Of a DNA stretch of 64,000 nucleotides, positions 8,956-63,502 are shown in pieces; the stretch's first letter is position 1; each line of letters opens with the position of its first letter. The notes beneath the pieces are model-generated. The model did not search any database and had not been told where the DNA came from. It saw only the letters and a program-made list of their open reading frames with translations. The translations under genes were made by a program, and so were the position numbers. Source of the stretch: a virus; IMG/VR virus record IMGVR_UViG_3300020411_003736, positions 32,001 through 96,000 of that record, one strand, 5' to 3'.

Positions 8956-10104
8956 TTAGTCACTCACCTCATCAAATAATTCTTCATCACTTCCATCACT
9001 CACAAACTTTTGAACGATTTGTTTGACAAAGGTTCTTTCGGAATCAACACCACCACTACTATCGTATTGTGGGTAGATTGTGATATCCGCGGATTCTTCC
9101 AAAGTGAATCCATCAAATAATAGTGATACTATTTCAACAGAAGTTCGAGTTGAGATACCACTACTAATTCGTGGATTATCATTTAGTGATTCCATTCGTG
9201 TCATATGAGATATTTTACTTACATTAGAAACTAATGTCTCATCTACAGATGGAAACATATATCTGAGTAATCCGAACTCTTCTTCTTCATTTAGTAAATC
9301 CATTTCAATAGTAGTGAACCTATCCATAAGTGCCTTATCTAATTGTCGGGTCGCGGTATACTCATTACCTATGTTCGCCGTGGCGACAAATGTAACTCCA
9401 TCAGATACCTTTATTGTATCCGAACCATCTTTTTCATCCAACCTTAAATATCTTTGTCCATAATCCAAAACAGACATTAGGATATTCCACGCATCGGGAT
9501 GTGCCCGCGTCAACTCATCCAATAGTATGATTGAGTTTGGAGTTTGTATCGCCTTTACAAAAAGTGATTCCGAAAAGTAAGTTCCTTTTTTGGAATCGAA
9601 ATGTGTATTTCCAATTAGGGTACTTCGTGGATCTTGTGTACTTCCCAAATTGAAGTAGAAAGATTCCCTATCCAAAGAATTGATTAAGGATTTCGCCGCG
9701 AGTGTCTTACCACACCCCGCTTGCCCTGTCATCATAATATTCTTACCTCTAATCGCAGACCTTATGAGATATTTCCACTTCAACTCTTTCATCACCAAAT
9801 CTTTTGGTTTGAGTTTATATGAAGTTGAAATGAAGTTCATCACTTCTTCGTGTTCAGATGGTATTTCGACATCCGAAGATGGTGGTGTAGTATATGTACT
9901 TCCCATACTATCGAATTGTGACATTGGGACTTTCCACCAATATATCCTTCCACCCTTCCCAACTCTTTGTTCTAAGGCCATACCCGCGTTAAAGGCGGAT
10001 TTTCGTGTGGATGTGAGAATCTCTGAAGTCCTTTTGACTCCATTCTGATCCCACGCATTGAATCTGTTCCCACTTTTTTCAATTTTAACGATTGTTGAAT
10101 TCAT
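8956..10104 (-). CDS. MoxR/CbbQ-like AAA+ ATPase
   Basis: Walker A GQAGCGKT, Walker B ILLDE, ATANIG and LDKALMDRF. Confidence 0.9.
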   Translation of the reverse strand: MNSTIVKIEKSGNRFNAWDQNGVKRTSEILTSTRKSAFNAGMALEQRVGKGGRIYWWKVPMSQFDSMGSTYTTPPSSDVEIPSEHEEVMNFISTSYKLKPKDLVMKELKWKYLIRSAIRGKNIMMTGQAGCGKTLAAKSLINSLDRESFYFNLGSTQDPRSTLIGNTHFDSKKGTYFSESLFVKAIQTPNSIILLDELTRAHPDAWNILMSVLDYGQRYLRLDEKDGSDTIKVSDGVTFVATANIGNEYTATRQLDKALMDRFTTIEMDLLNEEEEFGLLRYMFPSVDETLVSNVSKISHMTRMESLNDNPRISSGISTRTSVEIVSLLFDGFTLEESADITIYPQYDSSGGVDSERTFVKQIVQKFVSDGSDEELFDEVSD

Positions 10105-10131
10105 CGTTTTTTCTCCTTTTTCTGATACCTA

Positions 10132-10170
10132 AATTTACTCACTAAATACTATATGAGTCAAGCTTTTTTT
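10132..10170 (-). promoter_or_regulatory. Early promoter of the AAA+ ATPase
   Basis: AAAAAAAGCTTGACT-N18-TAAATT-TAGG. Confidence 0.75.
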
Positions 10171-10189
10171 TCACTTTTTTTCAATAAAT

Positions 10190-10540
10190 CGCGAGGTGGG
10201 GAAGAGGTCTTATTGACATCGCCTTCCTCACCCACCGAAATTTTCAGAGGGAATTAGTCGTCACCATTCCCTCTATATCTTAACTCACCGAATGACTATT
10301 CCCGTCGGAATTCATTACAAAGTGTTTAAGAAGTCTTTAAAAAATCTTTGGGAGTCTTTGTCAATGAGTTCTCCCTTTTCTCATCACCTCTGAAAATTTT
10401 ATCATCACCACGAGGATTTTTATGATGATGGTTGGTACATTCTACTCCTTAGTTCGTATTTACCGGCCCAACTCGGTGAACTTCAAATAGGGTATCATTT
10501 AAGTCATCTAAGTCTCAATTCCTTTTTTTTATCTCTCTCA
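10190..10540 (-). ncRNA. Candidate structured ncRNA
   Basis: Has its own promoter (10550-10590), no ORF of note, several hairpins, complementary loops and a 13-bp long-range helix. Confidence 0.5.
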
Positions 10541-10549
10541 TTACACCCA

Positions 10550-10590
10550 AATGTACCCATAAAATGCAATATGAGTCAAGGTTTTTTTTC
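10550..10590 (-). promoter_or_regulatory. Early promoter upstream of the candidate ncRNA
   Basis: A-tracts, TTGACT, N18, TACATT. Confidence 0.7.
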
Positions 10591-10609
10591 ACTTTTTTTC
10601 ACTTTTTTT

Positions 10610-10658
10610 TACCATAAGTTATCCCCCCCACGCCTTATTGAGACTCATTATCAATAAG
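10610..10658. repeat. Copy 2 of the repeat, with palindrome TTATTGAGACTCATTATCAATAA (Fur-box-like)
   Basis: Shares CCCACGCCTTATTGAGACTCA with 8609-8629; a partial inverted copy lies at 10696-10712. Confidence 0.75.
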
Positions 10659-10975
10659 TGTAACTATAGTAATATTAAGACTTACGACACGCATTTTGTT
10701 GAGTCTCAATAACATTTGAGTAATTAATCCAAAACTCTAAGTTATGGTAAAGTGTGGAATATACATAAAGTTATCCTTAAAGTCAAGCTTTTTATATCGA
10801 TATATTGTTTTATATACCAAAAATTTTAAAGTGGCGTGCGTGTGTCCATAGTATTTTGGATTCTATAGTATATTATATTAACCCTAATTAAAATATATAT
10901 TAGGGTTTTATGAAGTGGGTAATTGTGGTTTAAAGTGGTAACTTATGGTTAAGTACCACTATTATAAGGTATATC

Positions 10976-11191
10976 TTAATCTTCTATAAAATATTTGACT
11001 AAAACGGCGAGTTTATCCTCATATTCTGCCATTTTCTCTAATTCTTTTTCGATTGTCTCCATAGTATCTGGATGTTCCGCCACACCCACACCATTTTCAA
11101 TCATTATATTGATATTAACTTTATGTTTATTAATTTGGGATTCAAAGTAATCTTTCAATCCTTCCATTATATCATCTCTAAAGTTATTCAT
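10976..11191 (-). CDS. Conserved phage hypothetical protein
   Basis: HKVNI...NGVGVAEHPD..ETIEKEL motif, typical of marine T4-like phages. Confidence 0.7.
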   Translation of the reverse strand: MNNFRDDIMEGLKDYFESQINKHKVNINIMIENGVGVAEHPDTMETIEKELEKMAEYEDKLAVLVKYFIED

Positions 11192-11364
11192 ATCCTCACC
11201 TCTCTCAATGTCTTAACATATTTCCACGCATCACCCATTGTTTTGGAAATGTACTCTTTCGCATCTTCTTCATTTAGTGCGAGAAATGTGTACCCTTCAT
11301 CGGTTCTCCACCTCTTATAGTGTGAGAATTGTTTTGATTTTTTATCTTTCTTTTGTCTCTTCAT
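11188..11364 (-). CDS. Hypothetical protein (58 aa, not in the ORF track)
   Basis: MKRQKKDKKSKQFSHYKRWRTDEGYTFLALNEEDAKEY...; ATGA overlap with the next gene. Confidence 0.5.
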   Translation of the reverse strand: MKRQKKDKKSKQFSHYKRWRTDEGYTFLALNEEDAKEYISKTMGDAWKYVKTLREVRI

Positions 11365-11387
11365 ATTATGTGTCTAACTTCCTTATT

Positions 11388-11600
11388 TTATTTGTTTTTA
11401 TTTGTGAGTGAAATTTGGGTTCGAATCCATTCATCATATATCTTATCTATCTGTTCATCATCATATCCTCTCTTCTGGAATGCATCTTCTCTACTCATAT
11501 ATGTCATAGGTACATCGGATAGATTATACTCCCTACCATATGTATCTACAAATATTCTTTCCTTTAACCATTTAGGTTTATACTCTCTGTATGTTATCAT
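11388..11600 (-). CDS. Hypothetical protein
   Basis: ORF track; tightly packed. Confidence 0.55.
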   Translation of the reverse strand: MITYREYKPKWLKERIFVDTYGREYNLSDVPMTYMSREDAFQKRGYDDEQIDKIYDEWIRTQISLTNKNK

Positions 11601-11601
11601 C

Positions 11602-11805
11602 TTAATTCATGTCCTTTTTAACTTTAGGTTCATAGTATACTTTATCATAACAATTTAAACATAATTGTCCACACCCTTCTATATATCCCAATCTGAAATC
11701 CAAATGTTCATCTATGTCAAATTGAGTTTCACAATCACATATCACGCATTTATCTTTAGGTTTTATCTCTTCTTCTATTCCAATTGTCATTAATGGTTTT
11801 CTCAT
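11602..11805 (-). CDS. Small zinc-finger-like protein
   Basis: CVIC...YIEGCGQLCLNC. Confidence 0.65.
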   Translation of the reverse strand: MRKPLMTIGIEEEIKPKDKCVICDCETQFDIDEHLDFRLGYIEGCGQLCLNCYDKVYYEPKVKKDMN

Positions 11806-12050
11806 TTTACTAAATTATATCCTTCTATTAAATCCTCTACTTCATCTGTATTAGGAAATCTCCCAACCTCTTCCTTACTAAACAACATAGATGTCGCGTT
11901 ATTTGTGTGTAGAAACTTTACATTAAATATTCCATCCGAACCTTGTATTAAATCTACTTCTACTCCGAATCTATTTACTAAACTTTCCCTTAAACTAAGG
12001 GCTTGAAATTCATACCCTCATTGAGTACAATACTCTATAGTGATTTTCAT
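11802..12050 (-). CDS. Rdx-family (SelW/SelT/SelH-like) selenoprotein with CxxU motif (UGA at 12020-12018)
   Basis: MKITIEYCTQ-U-GYEFQALSLRESLVNRFGVEVDLIQGSDGIFNVKFLHTNNATSMLFSKEEVGRFPNTDEVEDLIEGYNLVK. The in-frame TGA sits at the catalytic CxxU position; a SECIS-like hairpin follows. Confidence 0.85.
11987..12001 (-). promoter_or_regulatory. Putative bacterial-type SECIS hairpin
   Basis: CCCTTA-GTT-TAAGGG stem-loop starting about 16 nt after the UGA; apical loop begins with GU. Confidence 0.55.
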
Positions 12051-12148
12051 CTATTTATCCATTTATACATTCTAAGAATCTTTTTAATATTCTTTTTATC
12101 TTATTCCTTTCACCTCTATTTCTTTCCCATAATAGAAATAACTCTTCT

Positions 12149-12334
12149 CTAAGTTTTGCCTCCGCTGACTCGCTCATTACTCTCTAATTCCTTTAACTCT
12201 TTTTCCAAACCTTCAATCATCCAACCATCCAAATGTCCTTTGGCTGTCAATTGTTGTTTGATGTGTTCTATTCTTTCCTTTCTCTTTAACTCTAAGGACA
12301 TCCCCTCTATCCAATTAGAAACTTGCTTCATCAA
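12149..12334 (-). CDS. Hypothetical protein
   Basis: ORF track. Confidence 0.5.
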   Translation of the reverse strand: MMKQVSNWIEGMSLELKRKERIEHIKQQLTAKGHLDGWMIEGLEKELKELESNERVSGGKT

Positions 12335-12570
12335 CCTCTTAACTCATAGTCTGAATATAAATCATCTTCCAATTCATCTTTCTTCTTACCTAATCTCCTA
12401 ATGATGTCCGACTCTTCCTTATCGGGACTAATACTTTCGGTTTTTTGTGCTATGTCAATACAATGAACCAAAAACTTCAATTGTTTTTCACTTAACGCAA
12501 TTCCATAACTTTTCTCCACATTTGGATTCATATAATTATGAACTTCACCAATTGTAAATTTCTCTTTCAT
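12331..12570 (-). CDS. Hypothetical protein
   Basis: Start probably MKEKF at 12570 (GGAG RBS, stop/start overlap). Confidence 0.55.
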   Translation of the reverse strand: MKEKFTIGEVHNYMNPNVEKSYGIALSEKQLKFLVHCIDIAQKTESISPDKEESDIIRRLGKKKDELEDDLYSDYELRG

Positions 12571-12815
12571 TATTCTTTCTCCAAGGTTATTCCGCATCCT
12601 TCCAACAACTCATCTAATGATATACCATCATCATATTCTTTACATTTTTGCATTTCTTCTACTAAGGGTACTAAAAACTTTTCATTTATTTCGGGCCGTT
12701 CTTCTATCAATCCCATAATAACAATTAATAATTGATTCATCACATCCCCATTCACCACATACTTATTTTCTCTAGCAAATGAGTAATAATCATAAAACTC
12801 GTTGTTAAACATCAC
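12570..12815 (-). CDS. Hypothetical protein
   Basis: ORF track. Confidence 0.55.
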   Translation of the reverse strand: MMFNNEFYDYYSFARENKYVVNGDVMNQLLIVIMGLIEERPEINEKFLVPLVEEMQKCKEYDDGISLDELLEGCGITLEKE

Positions 12816-12821
12816 ATCATC

Positions 12822-13184
12822 TTAAGCTTGCCCAATCTTATCATTCATTAAATCTTCCATAATTTGTTTCATCATATGGATTTCTTTAATTTCTTCAAAA
12901 CTCAATGCTTCCATCTCTTCTTCATTATGTTGTAACAATTGAGCTTTACTGATAACATCCACCAAATCTTCCGTAATACATTCTAATGAATCTTTTGTAG
13001 TATCATCTATATTAGAACCTTCTACAATTAATTCAATCAACCTATCTACCACGGTAGTTAGTTTTTTAGTGTCTAATTTTGGATTTGTTAAAGTATTTCT
13101 CATATCAACTATAAATATCTTCTTTTTCATACAAACCTGAGAACTATTTCGTATATATAGTGCCCCAACAAATTTTGGCTCCAC
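12822..13184 (-). CDS. Hypothetical protein
   Basis: ORF track; start uncertain. Confidence 0.55.
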   Translation of the reverse strand: MEPKFVGALYIRNSSQVCMKKKIFIVDMRNTLTNPKLDTKKLTTVVDRLIELIVEGSNIDDTTKDSLECITEDLVDVISKAQLLQHNEEEMEALSFEEIKEIHMMKQIMEDLMNDKIGQA

Positions 13185-13188
13185 TCTC

Positions 13189-13659
13189 TCATTTGAGAGG
13201 CATTTTCCCCCAACCCGTTAAATTTCTCGCTTTCAACCCACTCTCAAAATTATCAACCCAATCTTTTGATTCTTTAAGAGTTGGTATGTTCCCCTTACCA
13301 TTTAACCTTTCCATTTCTTTTCTGTATATTTTTATTGCTTCTATCTTCATACCCTTCTGTAATTTTTTTTCTATCTGATACTCCAATTGTGATTGAAAAG
13401 AACCATCAACTTCGCCATTCCACACCTTACGCCTATATTTCCAAATGATATTAGCCCTTCTCATTATATCTGCAATTTCTTCCTCTGTTAATTCATCATA
13501 ATTCGCAGCAACATTCGCTGTCATTACATAAGCCTCAGAGGAAAATGAAGAGAATAAATGATCATCGGTAGGTTTTATGTCTGGCTCTGTTGCCTTACAT
13601 AACTTTAATAACCTCTGGAGTCTTTCATACATCCATTCTTTTTTGTTACTACTAGGCAA
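13189..13659 (-). CDS. Protein with a C-terminal ribosomal L7/L12 CTD-like motif
   Basis: KIEAIKIYRKE...TLKESKDWVD resembles the bL12 pattern KIxVIKxVRxxxGLGLKEAKDLVE. Confidence 0.55.
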   Translation of the reverse strand: MPSSNKKEWMYERLQRLLKLCKATEPDIKPTDDHLFSSFSSEAYVMTANVAANYDELTEEEIADIMRRANIIWKYRRKVWNGEVDGSFQSQLEYQIEKKLQKGMKIEAIKIYRKEMERLNGKGNIPTLKESKDWVDNFESGLKARNLTGWGKMPLK

Positions 13660-13830
13660 TTATTTAACTATCTCATCCAATTTCAATTTTAACCTACTAA
13701 CCCAACTACCTTCTTTCTGAATCACCACAACATTTTCACCATCTATACTCTCGACCTCATACAAACCATCAATCCCAACCTTTAAAACTTTTACCCAATC
13801 TCCTACTTTTATTTCCTTTTTTTCTTTCAT
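13660..13830 (-). CDS. Small KOW/SH3-like protein (56 aa, not in the ORF track)
   Basis: MKEKKEIKVGDWVKVLKVGIDGLYEVESIDGENVVV...; GGAG RBS. Confidence 0.5.
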   Translation of the reverse strand: MKEKKEIKVGDWVKVLKVGIDGLYEVESIDGENVVVIQKEGSWVSRLKLKLDEIVK

Positions 13831-15798
13831 TTATTTCTCCAAAAACATATTGTTCATTGTTTTAGCCACTTCCATCATATTTGTGGGATTGATAAAAGTC
13901 GCATCCCTACCATACATTCTACTAAAAGTAGTTTTTTCATTCTCATAGGAATAATCACTACTGATAAAGTAACTCAATATTTTGATTCCATTATTTCGAA
14001 GTTGCTTCACCATTTTTTGAGTATGTTTCACAGCTTCTGTGCCTGAATAATGAATATCATTATTACCAAACCAAGGAGCCCCATCTGAATAATTGATGAA
14101 GTAATTATCATCACTATTTGACAAACCTAAAAAGTGATTCATCATAGCTTCGTAACATAGTGACTCTGGAGTAGTTCCACTAGTTCTAAGTGATGGCCAT
14201 AGATTCTTAACTTTACTTATCTTATCTTTTTGTGAATCATACGCAATCAACAGAACAGGATTATTTTCATTAGTATATCTCATACTCACAACAACTCTAA
14301 TGTTTCCAGCCATCTCAGCCGCTTTAATGATTGCCACAGTAGAGGTAATTGCATTTTCCCACTTCTTACCATTCATAGAACCTGAACCATCAATAGAAAT
14401 ATGAAGATTAGCTTTATTATATCTTTCTGTAAAGGTTTGTGAAAAAACTCTCTCATTACCAAATCCCAACTCAGAAATTAATCTTTTGTCTATTTTACCA
14501 GTATCTTGACGAGTGAAAATTAAATCTCTCTCTTCCCCACGAACCTTTAATTTCTTACCTAACATAGTTCCCAAACGAAGACCCTCAAGAATTGGTTTCC
14601 CATAATGTGAATCCCATACATCATCACCACCATACAACCAAGGTTTTTGAGCAAAATGAAAAGCATTACTATCTATTAAATCTTGAGTAAGATTAGGAAT
14701 AACAACACATTTTGTTTTTCCCATATATCCACCATCACCAACCTCAACCATCTCAGCACCACTTTTTGCAACAGAATTAACAATCTGAGCATCTCTTTTG
14801 GTTAGTTTGGATTTTGGTGTTTTTCCATCCATAAAATCTTTAGCTTTTTGAACAGCATTGATGAGTGATTTCTTTTGTCTATCTGATAACTCTTCAAAAT
14901 CTACAGAATCACCTTTTTCACCATCTTCAGCATCACCCGACTCAGCATCATCTCCTGGAGTCATTTCAGCATCACCAATATCAATAGTAGTTCCACCACC
15001 CATTTGAGAATCACTTTCTTCATTCTCTCCATCACCATTTTGTGACTCCGGCTGACCATTACCATTTTCATCATTGGTAGATTTAACAGAACCAACTATT
15101 GAAAATACCATATTTGAAACTTCTCTAGCCAAATCAATCACACCTTCAGGACTCAATCTCAATACATTTTTCAAATCCATCAAATTGTATATCTCACGAA
15201 GTTTTGGAAGTGCGTCTAAATCTGATTCCTTTGGAGCCATAAAACCTAAGATACGAAACTCATAACTTTCGATATCATACTCACGATACATACCTGATTT
15301 CAAACCCTTCCTAATGGCGTTATTTCTGAAATACTTCTTATAAAGACTGTGGTAGTAACCTTTGTAGCCAGGTGAAGATTTGAAAACCTTAGTATCGATT
15401 CTCCTATCCTCAATAAAGTTAATCATATTTTTGAAAAAAGCCCTTTGTTCATAAGTCCAATCCTCAGGAGTTTCTCTAATAGCGTCAGCCAAAAGTTCAA
15501 AATCACTAAAGGCAATGTGACTACCTTCGTGAAGAGCCAAACCAACTACATGGTCAAAATTCTTATCATTAATATTAGCAGAAATAGTAACATTCTTACC
15601 ATCTGTGTAACTATCTCCTCTTTGTGTATATTTAACAGGAATATTTTGTCCACTTACAATACGAACAAAATTTGCGATAGCTCTCTGATTAGAAGCCATC
15701 TGAATGTAATCTTTCTTTGGTTTTTCCTTTTCGATACCCAACAACTCATCAATGTCAGTATCATATTTATCAAACCAAAAATCCGAATAATTTTTCAT
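13831..15798 (-). CDS. VWA-domain protein with N-terminal HExxH domain (CobT-like partner of MoxR ATPases)
   Basis: LALHEGSH, IEDRRID, acidic linker, MIDAS motif DGSGSM...TP...SDG. Confidence 0.9.
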   Translation of the reverse strand: MKNYSDFWFDKYDTDIDELLGIEKEKPKKDYIQMASNQRAIANFVRIVSGQNIPVKYTQRGDSYTDGKNVTISANINDKNFDHVVGLALHEGSHIAFSDFELLADAIRETPEDWTYEQRAFFKNMINFIEDRRIDTKVFKSSPGYKGYYHSLYKKYFRNNAIRKGLKSGMYREYDIESYEFRILGFMAPKESDLDALPKLREIYNLMDLKNVLRLSPEGVIDLAREVSNMVFSIVGSVKSTNDENGNGQPESQNGDGENEESDSQMGGGTTIDIGDAEMTPGDDAESGDAEDGEKGDSVDFEELSDRQKKSLINAVQKAKDFMDGKTPKSKLTKRDAQIVNSVAKSGAEMVEVGDGGYMGKTKCVVIPNLTQDLIDSNAFHFAQKPWLYGGDDVWDSHYGKPILEGLRLGTMLGKKLKVRGEERDLIFTRQDTGKIDKRLISELGFGNERVFSQTFTERYNKANLHISIDGSGSMNGKKWENAITSTVAIIKAAEMAGNIRVVVSMRYTNENNPVLLIAYDSQKDKISKVKNLWPSLRTSGTTPESLCYEAMMNHFLGLSNSDDNYFINYSDGAPWFGNNDIHYSGTEAVKHTQKMVKQLRNNGIKILSYFISSDYSYENEKTTFSRMYGRDATFINPTNMMEVAKTMNNMFLEK

Positions 15799-15829
15799 TT
15801 GTTTCCTTTTTTATTTCTCATTTCGACCA

Positions 15830-15870
15830 AATATAACGATAAAATGCAATATGTGTCAAGCTTTTTTTTC
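15830..15870 (-). promoter_or_regulatory. Early promoter
   Basis: AAAAAAAAGCTTGACA-N18-TATATT. Confidence 0.75.
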
Positions 15871-15874
15871 ACTT

Positions 15875-16192
15875 TTATTTAATTTGTAATTCTTGTAACC
15901 ATTTTGGTACATTCTCCTTCATATAATGTTGTATAACAAATGCTTCAACCATATGAGTAAAAAACCAAATAAATGTAAGTATTGGTACATATATCCTAAA
16001 ATCCAATTCTAAATATCCCACACCAAACCAAGTCAGAAATAACATACCAACCGTTTTAGTTAAAAATCCCATTCCAGTAAAACCCAAACTCATCAAATTA
16101 CCACGTGCCACCACTACATACAAACCCATAACTAAATGTAATAAGTTTAATATAATTGGTGCTAACACACCTAATAAAATATATTCAATCAC
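15875..16192 (-). CDS. Membrane protein (3 TM)
   Basis: Hydrophobic segments. Confidence 0.65.
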   Translation of the reverse strand: MIEYILLGVLAPIILNLLHLVMGLYVVVARGNLMSLGFTGMGFLTKTVGMLFLTWFGVGYLELDFRIYVPILTFIWFFTHMVEAFVIQHYMKENVPKWLQELQIK

Positions 16193-24740: not shown

Positions 24741-25244
24741 TTACGCCTTTTCTTCAGCCGGCTTATCAATTAAGTCACCAGCTTTACCAGCTTTTTCTTC
24801 TTCAATTTCTTTCTTAGCTTCTGCTTTGAAATCTTTTTTCTTACCACCATGATAATCGTAAGCGTGACCTTCTTCAATCAGAATGTCATTTATACTTACC
24901 AATCCATCTTTATTTCTATCAACATTTTCTGATATCTCATGACCAACTACTGATGGGTCTACAAATATTTCTCCCAACACTCTACCGAACTTACCTGTGC
25001 CATAAGATACAATCTTAAATACACCAGCTTCCAATAACTCTTTATTTCGAGCCTTAGCTGCAAGTCCTTTCACCTTCTCTTCTTTATCACGAGTTCTACT
25101 TTCCCAAGTATCAATACCCATATATCTAATTCGTTTTTTAATTTTTAAATCGAAACCTAAATCAATATAACAATCGATTGTATCCCCATCTAAAACTTTT
25201 ACAAGTGTGCCATTATACTCAAATGACGCTGGTTTCTTTGCCAC
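24741..25244 (-). CDS. Thermonuclease (SNase-like) family nuclease
   Basis: VLDGDTID...IRYMGIDTWE...GKFGRVLG...LIEEGHA. Confidence 0.85.
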   Translation of the reverse strand: MAKKPASFEYNGTLVKVLDGDTIDCYIDLGFDLKIKKRIRYMGIDTWESRTRDKEEKVKGLAAKARNKELLEAGVFKIVSYGTGKFGRVLGEIFVDPSVVGHEISENVDRNKDGLVSINDILIEEGHAYDYHGGKKKDFKAEAKKEIEEEKAGKAGDLIDKPAEEKA

Positions 25245-60769: not shown

Positions 60770-63502
60770 TTAGAAATTGACCGATAGGCCAAGATTGAAG
60801 TGTCTTGGTGTTCCCAAGAATACTTCGGCATTATGAGCTGCGTGAACTTTGTCACCATACCCATTGTACTTACTGTTATCAACAGCATCTTGTACATAAA
60901 CATCATCAAGCGCATTAAATAAATGTGCAGATAATGTCATATCATAACCAGCGATTTGTGGTAGTTTGTATGATAGATGTAAATCAAGTTTGGAATAACC
61001 TGGGGCTTTCCATACTTGAGCTCTATCTTCTTCACCATCAACTTCACGAGCATCAGGACTCCAATCAGCGTAATTGTCATCATACATTTTGTATAGTCCT
61101 TGGATACTTAGTCCTTCAATTGGTTTCAATGTCAAACCACCAACATAAGCAGTTTGTGGCATATCTCCAACTTTCAACTCATTAAGAGCATAAGTATATT
61201 GAGTAGTCATTTGTCCTACGACCTGACCTTCTTCATTATACTCCATTTCTTGATAATCACCTATTGCGTCACCATCAAAGAACCAATCACCTTTGCTGAA
61301 AACAAAGTCAACATCCACCATTTCATGTAATGCAACTTTTGCTTCAACTTCAACACCAGTATGACTTTGGTTCACACCCTTTAGATAAATAATATCAGTA
61401 TCACCTGAATCACCTTGACCTGTTTCTACAGATTTTGTAAGGTTTCTATCTTTCCATTGAGTGTTATAGAAACTACCTTTAAGATTAACCAAATCACTTG
61501 CGTATTTTCCACCAACTTCAAAGCTTTGAAACTTCTCATTGTCTGGATTAGAAGCGACTGTACCATCATAGGCAATTACATTATCCAAAATCGGTGGTTT
61601 TTCAACATATCCAACATTAGCAAATGCTGACATTCTATCATCAAGATTGAATACACCACCACCTTTCACTTGAAAAGTAGTAATGTTATCAGCAACAACT
61701 TTAGAAGCATCAACTGCAAAATGGTCTAAGTAAGAGTATCCAATAGTAGATATTCCACCCATACCATAAAGGTTGAACTTCTGTATGTCGTATTTACCTT
61801 GTAGGAAAGCACCAAACCAATCAACCGTAGTTTCGTTGTGATAAGCGATAATATCACCTAACCCAACTTTCTTACCATCAGGTGCGTTATCATCAGCAAA
61901 GTCTACATAGTAGTCTCCACCAAGTAAATCACGAACCTCACGAGCGTGTTCGATACCAGCAGTTCTCCAATCAATACCGACTTGTACCTCTAAATCATCA
62001 TTTACATCATAATTTAGTTTGGAAATCAATCCATAGGTATTTTGTCTGTTAATTGAATTACGAAGTATACCAGTTGACCTATTCTCACTATCTGACCAAG
62101 CTGAATCGATGTTTGCTGAGTTTTCAGCAATCTCACCGTTCCAATCCCATGTCCAAGGTGAACTTGAGTACCAAGCATTCCCTTCGATAGCAGGAAATCG
62201 TTTAACACTCCCATAAGTACCTGTACCACCTCCTGAACCACCACTCCAATACAAGATTGAACTTAGTCTAACTTGGTCATTTACATCATAGAAATGATTA
62301 AGATTGACTAATGGTTTATGAAAGAAATTTTCTCTTTCGTTCAGTAGTGTTGAACTGTACCTATCAGTTGTTCTCGCACCATACATATACCAATATTGTT
62401 GGCCTGTGTATGATGGATCAACGGGTGCCCAGTTCTGATTGAAAAACCTACCAGCTTCATGCTCAAACTTCTCACCTTCAGCGAAAGCCTGAGTATCATA
62501 TCCATCAACATCACCAGCCAACTCTTGTGAATAAGTTGCTATGTTCTGTTTATATAGGTTTTGTCCATGTCTTTGTGGAGCACCAATTGCATATAACTCA
62601 AATCGTTGGTCATCAGATACAGCATAAGATGTACCAAGATAATAAGCCCAAGCATCTGTCCAAGTACCATCAATAAAACCATCACCAGTTTTACGAACAA
62701 CAGTACCACTAACAGCAAGCTTATCACCAATTAAACCTGAGTTATAATTCAAAGTAGATTTAAGGAATCCACCCTCACCTACTTCTTGTTTGAACTTACC
62801 ACCCTTTTCGTGAGCAGCAGGATCGGTGATTATATTCATTGTTCCACCAATGGATGGTGTAGCAAGATTTACAGCTGATAGACCTCTTTGCATCTGAATG
62901 GAAGAAGTAGCATCACCTACACCATCCCAATTAGACCAATAGACCCATCCGTTCTCCATATCATTTTGGGGAACACCATTTATCATTACTGCAACATTCC
63001 GTTGATTAAAACCTCTCACATTTATACGAGCGTCACCAGCCCCACCACCTTGTTGAGTAGCATATACACTTGGCGTAGTATTAAGAATCATTGGAATATC
63101 TTGAGAACCGAGCCTCACTTCCATTTCAACTTTATCTACAGTAGTATAAGCAACAGGTGTCTTTTCGTCAGCCCGTGAAGCCAAGACTTCAAGCTCTGAC
63201 ATTGTAACAGCGTCAACTTCTAATAAGAAATTAACTGTTCCAACTATGTCATTCACCGTAACAGTATTTGTTACTGATGAATACCCAATAAATGAAGCAG
63301 TTACATCATAGTCACCTTGAGCACCAACATCAATAGTGTATTTACCAGACTCGTCTGTTACACCACCTTTATCAGTTCCCTCAACAACCACATTAGCTCC
63401 AACCAAAGGGTTTGATTCCGCATCTGCAACTACACCTACAATGGCTTGACCAAACAAACCTGTCGTGAGTAGTACAGCTACGATTAGATTACGATTATTC
63501 AT
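60770..63502 (-). CDS. TonB-dependent receptor with N-terminal carboxypeptidase-regulatory-like domain
   Basis: Signal peptide; PLVGANVVV.GT..G.VTD..G.Y; plug motif RINVRGF...NGVP.ND; C-terminal TPRHFNLGLSVNF. Confidence 0.92.
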   Translation of the reverse strand: MNNRNLIVAVLLTTGLFGQAIVGVVADAESNPLVGANVVVEGTDKGGVTDESGKYTIDVGAQGDYDVTASFIGYSSVTNTVTVNDIVGTVNFLLEVDAVTMSELEVLASRADEKTPVAYTTVDKVEMEVRLGSQDIPMILNTTPSVYATQQGGGAGDARINVRGFNQRNVAVMINGVPQNDMENGWVYWSNWDGVGDATSSIQMQRGLSAVNLATPSIGGTMNIITDPAAHEKGGKFKQEVGEGGFLKSTLNYNSGLIGDKLAVSGTVVRKTGDGFIDGTWTDAWAYYLGTSYAVSDDQRFELYAIGAPQRHGQNLYKQNIATYSQELAGDVDGYDTQAFAEGEKFEHEAGRFFNQNWAPVDPSYTGQQYWYMYGARTTDRYSSTLLNERENFFHKPLVNLNHFYDVNDQVRLSSILYWSGGSGGGTGTYGSVKRFPAIEGNAWYSSSPWTWDWNGEIAENSANIDSAWSDSENRSTGILRNSINRQNTYGLISKLNYDVNDDLEVQVGIDWRTAGIEHAREVRDLLGGDYYVDFADDNAPDGKKVGLGDIIAYHNETTVDWFGAFLQGKYDIQKFNLYGMGGISTIGYSYLDHFAVDASKVVADNITTFQVKGGGVFNLDDRMSAFANVGYVEKPPILDNVIAYDGTVASNPDNEKFQSFEVGGKYASDLVNLKGSFYNTQWKDRNLTKSVETGQGDSGDTDIIYLKGVNQSHTGVEVEAKVALHEMVDVDFVFSKGDWFFDGDAIGDYQEMEYNEEGQVVGQMTTQYTYALNELKVGDMPQTAYVGGLTLKPIEGLSIQGLYKMYDDNYADWSPDAREVDGEEDRAQVWKAPGYSKLDLHLSYKLPQIAGYDMTLSAHLFNALDDVYVQDAVDNSKYNGYGDKVHAAHNAEVFLGTPRHFNLGLSVNF

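Follow-up and report, generated by a model that had tools for sequence, protein, structure and literature searches.

A probable SelW-like selenoprotein gene with an in-frame UGA and a SECIS-type hairpin in an uncultured marine T4-like phage

Does a bacteriophage gene whose reading frame is closed by UGA after ten codons end there, or is the codon read through as selenocysteine (Sec)? The question is raised by a locus in a 64,000-nucleotide (nt) stretch of viral DNA (hereafter the window), which comprises bases 32001–96000 of the 130,380-bp IMG/VR virus record IMGVR_UViG_3300020411_003736; the record is linear, is estimated by CheckV to be 71% complete, and has a G+C content of 32.5%. From the letters of the window alone, a phage-encoded selenoprotein gene of the Rdx/SelW-like CxxU family had been proposed at 11802–12050, with an in-frame UGA and a hairpin resembling a selenocysteine insertion sequence (SECIS). 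These coordinates proved right; the strand, which was not given with them, is the minus strand. We consider it highly probable that the locus, here called selW, is a real gene of an uncultured marine T4-like phage and codes for a SelW-like (Rdx) redox protein with selenocysteine in its CxxU motif. The features on which the argument turns are the following:

11802..12050 (minus): SelW-like (Rdx family) gene, probably for a selenoprotein; translated with TGA read as U, with CxxU at codons 8–11
12018..12020 (minus): UGA in frame at codon 11, proposed to encode selenocysteine; the same codon is TGA in relatives
12027..12029 (minus): Cys8 (TGT), the resolving residue of CxxU; the column is near-invariant in alignment A1
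11987..12001 (minus): SECIS-type hairpin CCCUUA-GUU-UAAGGG, within codons Ala17–Glu22; 6-bp stem and 3-nt loop

Read downward from position 12050, the letters ATG AAA ATC ACT ATA GAG TAT TGT ACT CAA TGA GGG TAT give M-K-I-T-I-E-Y-C-T-Q-U-G-Y. The gene extends on the minus strand from 12050 to 11802 as 82 codons and a terminal TGA; the 71 open codons that follow the internal TGA include GSDGIFNV and LFSKEEVGRFPNTDEV (TGA read as U). The stop codon TGA (11804..11802) and the ATG (11805..11803) that begins a 67-amino acid (aa) open reading frame (ORF) overlap in the arrangement ATGA. The start MKITIEYCTQ*GY, the 71 open codons and the ATGA overlap had all been part of the original prediction, and all are present on the minus strand. 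That ordinary gene calling passes over the gene was likewise confirmed: translation table 11 ends the frame after 10 codons and gives no minus-strand ORF of at least 30 aa over selW, which is why the ORF track of the window misses it.

To which protein family would the translated product belong? With C standing for U, the Pfam Rdx profile (PF10262) matched at 59.1 bits against a cut-off of 22.6 (E = 5e-16), and the match covers residues 2–76 and positions 1–73 of the 74 profile positions, that is, both sides of the TGA. The HMMER comparison with Pfam Rdx therefore bears out the Rdx/SelW-like CxxU family that had been named. The NCBIfam model TIGR02174 (CXXU_selWTH) was also matched above its cut-off (40.9 against 34.2 bits). 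The narrower equivalog model NF041051 (SelTWH_Campy) scored 64 bits, below its cut-off of 88, and the assignment is thus to the wider family only. A sequence search of the PDB returned 2ojl, 2ljk (MIEN1) and 2fa8, the CxxC motifs of which align to the C-T-Q-U of the phage protein. An AlphaFold2 model based on 28 sequences reached a mean predicted local distance difference test (pLDDT) score of 89.4 and places, in order, a strand (residues 2–8), a helix (14–28), three strands and a C-terminal helix, with C8-T-Q-U11 positioned between the first strand and the first helix. Querying the PDB with this model using Foldseek gave 2ojl, 2fa8, 2obk, 2oka, 2p0g and 3dex as the best matches, with template modelling (TM) scores of 0.76–0.80 and root mean square deviations of 1.6–2.2 Å; MIEN1 and mouse SelW (2npb) ranked after these bacterial SelW-related structures. 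The phage gene belongs to the Rdx/SelW-like family, and a thioredoxin-like beta-alpha-beta-beta-beta-alpha fold is predicted for its product. The PHROGs collection holds no family at E ≤ 0.01 for SelW or for its four small neighbours, and no bacterial representative genome yielded a match of more than 48% identity to the window SelW.

Is the TGA at codon 11 real, and is it maintained? The reality of the codon, which the original prediction had left to be confirmed, is supported by three independent assemblies: the Logan contigs of X3, X7 and X9, three runs from as many different studies, span the whole gene and are identical to the window at 12018–12020. The X3 contig has zero differences in the gene, and the X7 and X9 contigs have two, at 12005 (Gln16 to Glu) and at 11871 (Glu60 to Asp). 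A word-based protein search returned one sole close protein, P0002, which is 96% identical, derives from a separate 2.5-kb Joint Genome Institute (JGI) contig and had been called with W at both TGAs. Alignment A1 was too diverse for a scan of further loci, and a closer alignment, A2, was used for the locus searches. The homologous codon is TGA in 13 of 13 related IMG/VR viral contigs, in 80 of 80 metagenome loci (the best 80 of 470 metagenome relatives; 79 recognized by pattern and one, L166, by eye) and in 80 of 80 loci of bacterial species-representative genomes (the best 80 of 512 bacterial genome relatives). One further locus, L009, was rejected as a spurious match.

The codon-11 column of 69 representative proteins holds C in 23, W in 26 and S in 2, and the remaining 18 are without the N-terminus or the motif; the W entries presumably represent TGA called under genetic code 4. 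On this comparison of sequences, the family displays the Sec/Cys alternation that is expected at a selenoprotein site. The alternation of TGA and TGY, which had been proposed as a check on phage homologues, holds across the family (23 C, 26 W) and was not found among the phage homologues examined, all of which carry TGA. Downstream of the TGA, the ratio of nonsynonymous to synonymous substitution rates (dN/dS) between the window and 11 phage-linked relatives is 0.13–0.42 in ten pairs, with one pair saturated, these values being rough as dS is high. By sequence comparison, purifying selection acts on either side of the TGA. In three loci (L100, L188 and L189), the selW frame itself ends in TGA and is followed by about 14 open basic codons before TAA or TAG; this second TGA is probably just a stop.

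We next consider the signal that would distinguish this UGA from a stop. The hairpin CCCUUA-GUU-UAAGGG occupies 12001..11987, its first base being the 17th after the UGA, so that the spacer is 16 nt; the loop begins with G at 11995 and U at 11994. Its conservation was evaluated in 86 sequences aligned without gaps over 60 nt, beginning at the TGA; in this alignment, columns 20–25 pair with columns 29–34. Base pairing is present in 95.9% of cells, compared with 79.5% in shuffled alignments (0 of 500 as high), and four of the six pairs change on both sides, with 81 such cells against 23.2 in shuffles (again 0 of 500). In a control in which the 3′ arm was slid by one to three columns, pairing fell to 35–58% of cells. 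The first loop base (G26) is G in all 86 sequences and the second (U27) is U in 74 of them, and the distance from the UGA to the loop is constant at 22 nt throughout the alignment, made up of the 16-nt spacer and the 6-nt arm. In the phage-linked set (26 sequences, 24 distinct), 144 of 144 cells are paired and three pairs change on both sides. The stems of the window (CCCUUA/UAAGGG) and of the relative L003 (CUCUCA/UGAGAG) are two compensatory changes apart, and these changes fall on synonymous third positions in Ala/Arg and Leu/Leu codons. The SECIS-like hairpin noticed about 16 nt past the UGA, with G(U) in its loop, is hence present, covarying and invariant in its loop G.

The bacterial SECIS (bSECIS) model, as given in a 2026 review of prokaryotic selenoproteomes, has a loop of 3–9 nt, an upper stem of 4–16 bp, a UGA-to-loop distance of 16–37 nt, a G in the first two loop positions that is usually followed by G or U, and a minimum free energy of −7.5 kcal/mol or lower (PMC13188914). 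The window hairpin fits the model in its loop size (3 nt), its stem (6 bp), its loop G-U and its spacing (22 nt). An Rfam scan of the window, which included no SECIS model, reported manA RNA only; this RNA (RF01745, 70.8 bits, full length) lies at 365–558 on the minus strand, beside the sole tRNA of the record, a tRNA-Gly(UCC) at 197–269 on the same strand.

If the codon is translated, is it translated as selenocysteine? UGA could instead be read as Trp, Cys or another residue, by a near-cognate or suppressor tRNA or in a host in which UGA is a sense codon, with the hairpin acting as a generic stimulator. Gene callers do put W at the codon-11 column in 26 representative proteins, the window hairpin is weak, and a search of the phage record revealed no Sec machinery. 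The use of TGA elsewhere in the phage speaks otherwise: the 142 non-overlapping ORFs of at least 80 aa in the 130,380-bp record stop at TAA in 86 cases, at TGA in 35 and at TAG in 21, and the coding density under table 11 is 90%. The phage has no changed genetic code, and TGA is an ordinary stop elsewhere in it, as had been predicted; with 35 of 142 ORFs ending in TGA, UGA is not generally sense in the host. The only tRNA of the record is the tRNA-Gly(UCC). The site itself is the catalytic position of CxxU/CxxC, and Sec forms of this family are known. In position, loop size and its invariant loop G, the hairpin agrees with the SelB-binding bSECIS model, and the same architecture recurs in all 160 bacterial and metagenome relatives (best 80 of 512 and best 80 of 470, respectively). 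Furthermore, tRNA-Sec scored above the Rfam cut-off in four of five SelW-bearing bacterial genomes, a positive control in which the fifth genome reached 46.5 against 47 bits. Given a SelB-type hairpin and TGA as an ordinary stop, Sec-independent read-through is unlikely, and we assign it a low probability.

A selenoprotein reading raises in turn the question of where the decoding machinery would reside. The 130,380-bp record, about 71% complete, contains no match to tRNA-Sec (RF01852), selA, selB or selD. Among fragments of related phages, neither selD nor tRNA-Sec was detected in G001–G005, and neither selA nor selB in G001 and G003–G005; sub-threshold tRNA-Sec matches in these fragments were rejected as ordinary tRNA-Cys, tRNA-Gly and tRNA-Ala. 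As the phage fragment holds no Sec machinery, the host must supply SelA, SelB, SelC and SelD. The proposal that the phage borrows these host factors is in keeping with both observations that bear on it, their absence from the phage fragment and the abundance of selA in the candidate host phylum described below. Two scans for other recoded genes in the record gave nothing convincing: two TGA-plus-hairpin candidates proved to be antisense to long ORFs, and the remaining candidates had low-complexity translations.

The ATGA overlap at the end of selW suggests a different role for the UGA. As an alternative, it had been put forward that the main task of the UGA and the SECIS hairpin is to make translation of the coupled zinc-finger gene downstream depend on selenium. 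Ribosomes failing at codon 11 would not reach the coupled start. The genes flanking selW in relatives speak against this role: a homologue of the 67-aa zinc-finger ORF adjoins selW in none of five related viral loci, and in the metagenome locus L099 it is found about 400 nt further downstream, behind another ORF. In many relatives, selW follows a staphylococcal nuclease (SNase)-like gene and ends in TAA or TAG. The SelW protein is, moreover, itself under purifying selection by the above comparisons. As the zinc-finger neighbour is not conserved and SelW is under selection, any gating would be a local by-product, and we regard a primarily regulatory role as very improbable. Finally, that selW is dead, a decaying remnant of host origin in which the TGA truly terminates translation or results from a sequencing error, might be suggested by a table 11 frame that closes after 10 codons with no ORF called, but the presence of the same TGA in three independent assemblies, 71 codons past it that are open in every relative with dN/dS of 0.13–0.42, hairpin pairing kept through compensatory changes and a match to the full Rdx profile mean that conservation and purifying selection, as judged from aligned sequences, exclude it, and we give it next to no credence.

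The reading of selW as a selenoprotein gene is thus the one we prefer. What is established computationally is the family and fold of its product, the conserved TGA, the covarying hairpin and the role of TGA as an ordinary stop in other genes, and the pattern is beyond chance because the Rdx match spans the TGA and because TGA and hairpin recur together in every relative examined.

What kind of phage carries the gene, and in which surroundings? The record encodes a T4-type DNA polymerase (phrog_262, 2e-193) and a cobS-like ATPase. Within a run of abutting small co-oriented ORFs, selW lies between a cobT-like VWA gene (13831–15798) and the cobS-like gene (8956–10104), and its immediate neighbours are:

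11602..11805 (minus): 67-aa CxxC...CxxC ORF, the downstream neighbour, not a conserved partner; its ATG overlaps the selW TGA
12055..12177 (minus): 40-aa ORF upstream of selW; ends 4 nt before the selW ATG

The 67-aa ORF has no Pfam or PHROG match and the 40-aa ORF no family match; a homologue of the 40-aa ORF follows selW in the relative L007. Auxiliary-type genes in the neighbourhood include those for Hsp20, PhoH, an SNase-like protein and CobS/CobT-like proteins. They are typical auxiliary genes and indicate no specific pathway. A homologue of the SNase-like gene (window 24741–25244, minus strand) directly precedes selW in L097, L100, L102, L104, L006 and L008; in the window phage, selW is 12 kb from this gene. 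The differing distance between the two genes in different phages implies that selW moved within the auxiliary-gene region. Scans for promoters, terminators and T4 late motifs found no more than chance.

Flanking genes and phylogeny place the gene in a phage clade. Flanking ORFs match other genes of the present phage (E < 1e-6) in five of five viral loci and in 18 of 34 low-G+C metagenome loci, the latter chosen by eye from the 80 metagenome loci. In a tree of 154 rows and 75 columns, with many unresolved forks, one 32-row group contains all 24 phage-flanked rows (ultrafast bootstrap 99, SH-like approximate likelihood ratio test (SH-aLRT) 78). Within the tree, the window belongs to a 16-row clade that consists of phage-flanked rows only (96/82), and rows from metagenome-assembled genomes (MAGs) of Alphaproteobacteria form the nearest outside group (98/89). 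Cultured phages in INPHARED gave no match, either to 9000–16000 of the window by megablast or to the SelW protein by tblastn. The best relative of the polymerase, from Microcystis phage Mel-JY01 at 44.6%, was rejected as too distant to name a host.

Which bacterium would then supply the Sec machinery? A lead is offered by the TonB-dependent receptor of the phage (910 aa, 60770–63502, minus strand), which shares, across its entire length, 63–66% identity with genes of many genomes in the G006 phylum and has matches at E ≤ 1e-30 in 79 of 121 genomes of that phylum. G006, the genome that contains the selW locus L053, is labelled Candidatus Neomarinimicrobiota; the NCBI taxonomy places it in the Fidelibacterota of the FCB group, phylum names here being taken from record titles and tree labels. 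We take Fidelibacterota to be the SAR406/Marinimicrobia group. In the phylum of G007 (locus L079, labelled uncultured Cytophagia), the best identities of the receptor are 49–55%, with matches at E ≤ 1e-60 in 45 of 151 genomes, and in the phylum of a gammaproteobacterial MAG, 0 of 151 genomes gave a match at E ≤ 1e-60. The selA gene scored above its curated cut-off in 84 of 121 sampled Fidelibacterota genomes, among them those with the best TonB-receptor matches, and a TGA-containing selW is present in five of five Fidelibacterota genomes that were checked. In the G007 phylum, selA passed the cut-off in 116 of 151 sampled genomes, including two unpublished ones (G274, G217); for a phylum represented by an uncultured Cytophagia MAG, this share is far above expectation. 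The probable host is a bacterium of the FCB group that uses Sec, and the leading candidate phylum is Fidelibacterota (Marinimicrobia).

The host question also bears on SAR11. According to a 2026 preprint, 135 complete Pelagibacter genomes are without selC (10.64898/2026.04.03.716425), which speaks against a SAR11 host even though the gene content of the record resembles that of pelagiphages. A separate observation concerns seven low-G+C cellular contigs (L109–L113, L124 and L130), the TGA-containing selW of which groups with the phage clade and not with the other bacterial rows. Genes for a type-IX-secretion sorting domain, a glutathione S-transferase (GST), DUF512, Der, a rhodanese and a ferredoxin lie in the flanks of these contigs. 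In the L109–L113 type, the SelW of which is the closest among cellular contigs to the phage clade, one flanking gene is 76% identical to a Fidelibacterota genome, the sole resemblance of this kind. Judged by its placement in the tree, this grouping may reflect exchange between phage and host, in either direction.

Several observations weigh against the selenoprotein reading or against the host proposed for it. The energy of the hairpin is −5.0 kcal/mol when folded alone and −6.3 kcal/mol in context, weaker than the −7.5 kcal/mol limit, and the A+U-rich version found in phages is the weakest among those seen; when 60 nt are folded with the hairpin enforced, the value is −8.1 kcal/mol, so that the energy criterion is borderline and depends on the stretch taken. 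When the 60–66 nt after the UGA are folded without constraint, a different hairpin is favoured, in which the same CCCUU takes part. This competing structure, at 12020–11990 of the minus strand, pairs GAGGGUA, which overlaps the UGA, with UGCCCUU, and excludes the SECIS stem; the pairing does not occur in relatives across the 86-sequence alignment and is particular to this phage, and a ribosome sitting on the UGA would melt it. Cys was not found at the codon-11 site in any phage relative, so that the alternation exists at the level of the family only. The partial state of the record (about 71% complete) limits the negative result for phage Sec machinery, and the single contig of the RNA run X19 covers 12581–12700 only, outside selW. 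As regards the host, the inference is drawn from the similarity of one gene, that for the TonB receptor, and is accordingly offered as a lead. The selW genes of the five Fidelibacterota genomes are of another sequence subtype than those of the phage clade, and Fidelibacterota selW as the donor was rejected on this account. Sec use was likewise discarded as a means to separate the two candidate phyla, both being rich in selA (84 of 121 and 116 of 151 genomes).

The selenoprotein reading implies a course of events during infection. The phage mRNA would be translated by the host ribosome, and when UGA codon 11 enters the A site, the hairpin located 17–31 nt downstream would hold the G-U of its loop at a distance of about 22 nt. 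The host SelB-GTP-Sec-tRNA(Sec) complex would bind the hairpin and insert selenocysteine, whereupon 71 further codons would be translated up to the second UGA, which has no hairpin and would act as a stop. Failed decoding would cost only a 10-residue peptide because the UGA comes so early. Such a scheme would require that host SelA, SelB, SelC and SelD be active throughout infection. As an auxiliary redox gene, selW would most likely yield a product that reduces or exchanges disulfides or sulfenates on partner molecules in the infected cell. The binding of SelB, the incorporation of selenium, the redox role and the identity of the host are inferred. The wider proposition is that the ocean's commonest selenoprotein family, recoding signal included, has been domesticated by a clade of uncultured T4-like phages that are abundant in the sea and probably have their hosts among Sec-using FCB bacteria such as Fidelibacterota; we regard it as evenly balanced.

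How much of this has precedent? A full-text literature search, which did not extend to supplementary tables, returned no report of a selenoprotein from a virus of bacteria, in agreement with the earlier remark that phage selenoproteins are rarely described; supplements beyond that search (Table S1 of the Global Ocean Sampling (GOS) study, Table S5 of the pelagimyophage study and the Actinomarina tables) could list a phage SelW or a 78-aa Actinomarina family. The words phage and virus do not occur in the GOS selenoproteome paper, and according to a 2021 survey, selenoprotein families contain few or no viral sequences. In the 2026 prokaryotic selenoproteome review, the words phage, virus and viral do not occur (PMC13188914). 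Neither the protein family nor the recoding mechanism is new; the novelty lies in the phage as carrier and in a dependence that extends across two genomes.

Several implications would follow. A phage that writes Sec into its own genes would indicate that the recoding system is open to foreign mRNAs and is kept running in lytic infection. The presence of selW would constrain the host of a widespread uncultured phage group to Sec-users and, given the Pelagibacter data, argue against Pelagibacter. The repertoire of phage auxiliary metabolic genes would gain a dependence on a trace element. Genes of this kind are missed or truncated in viromes by standard gene callers. If the reading is true, the phage clade depends on host SelA, SelB, SelC and SelD through infection, and the supply of selenium becomes a factor in phage fitness; part of the 'bacterial SelW-like selenoproteins' of metagenomes would actually be viral; and selenoprotein genes with an intact SECIS would move between hosts and phages.

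Comparison with known systems clarifies which parts of the locus are shared and which are particular to it. To decode Sec, a cell needs a tRNA reserved for it, three enzymes or factors and a signal in the mRNA. With recoding of the E. coli fdhF type, in which SelB binds a SECIS within the ORF, the phage gene shares an in-ORF UGA with a small hairpin behind it, the 3-nt apical loop of which opens with G and then U. The phage hairpin is within the spacing (16–37 nt) and stem (4–16 bp) of the bSECIS model, whereas its energy of −5.0 to −6.3 kcal/mol is above the −7.5 kcal/mol limit stated there. Unlike in E. coli, the trans-acting factors are not encoded together with the gene and would come from the host genome. 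Molluscum contagiosum and fowlpox viruses encode glutathione peroxidase selenoproteins, and these viruses have in common with the phage a viral selenoprotein that relies, or in the phage would rely, on host Sec machinery; their genes use a eukaryotic SECIS in the 3′ untranslated region and belong to a different family, whereas the phage gene has a bacterial SECIS-type hairpin inside the ORF. T4-like phages encode Cys-based thioredoxins and glutaredoxins of the NrdC/NrdH type. These are, like the phage SelW, small auxiliary redox proteins of the thioredoxin fold and CxxC type; the phage SelW differs from them in being Rdx and not thioredoxin or glutaredoxin, with a predicted selenocysteine in place of the second Cys.

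The closest likeness is to the bacterial SelW-like proteins (PF10262, TIGR02174), with which the phage protein shares a length of about 75–85 aa, the N-terminal IEYCxxU, the motifs GGxFEV and FSKxxxGRFP and the predicted fold, and the in-ORF SECIS hairpin has the same position and shape in both. The differences from the bacterial genes are that the present gene sits in the genome of a T4-like phage, that the phage-linked sequences have an A+U-rich version of the hairpin inside the codons A-L-S-L-R, and that the window protein has a 5-residue insertion (the HTNNA region), which it has in common with its nearest relatives only.

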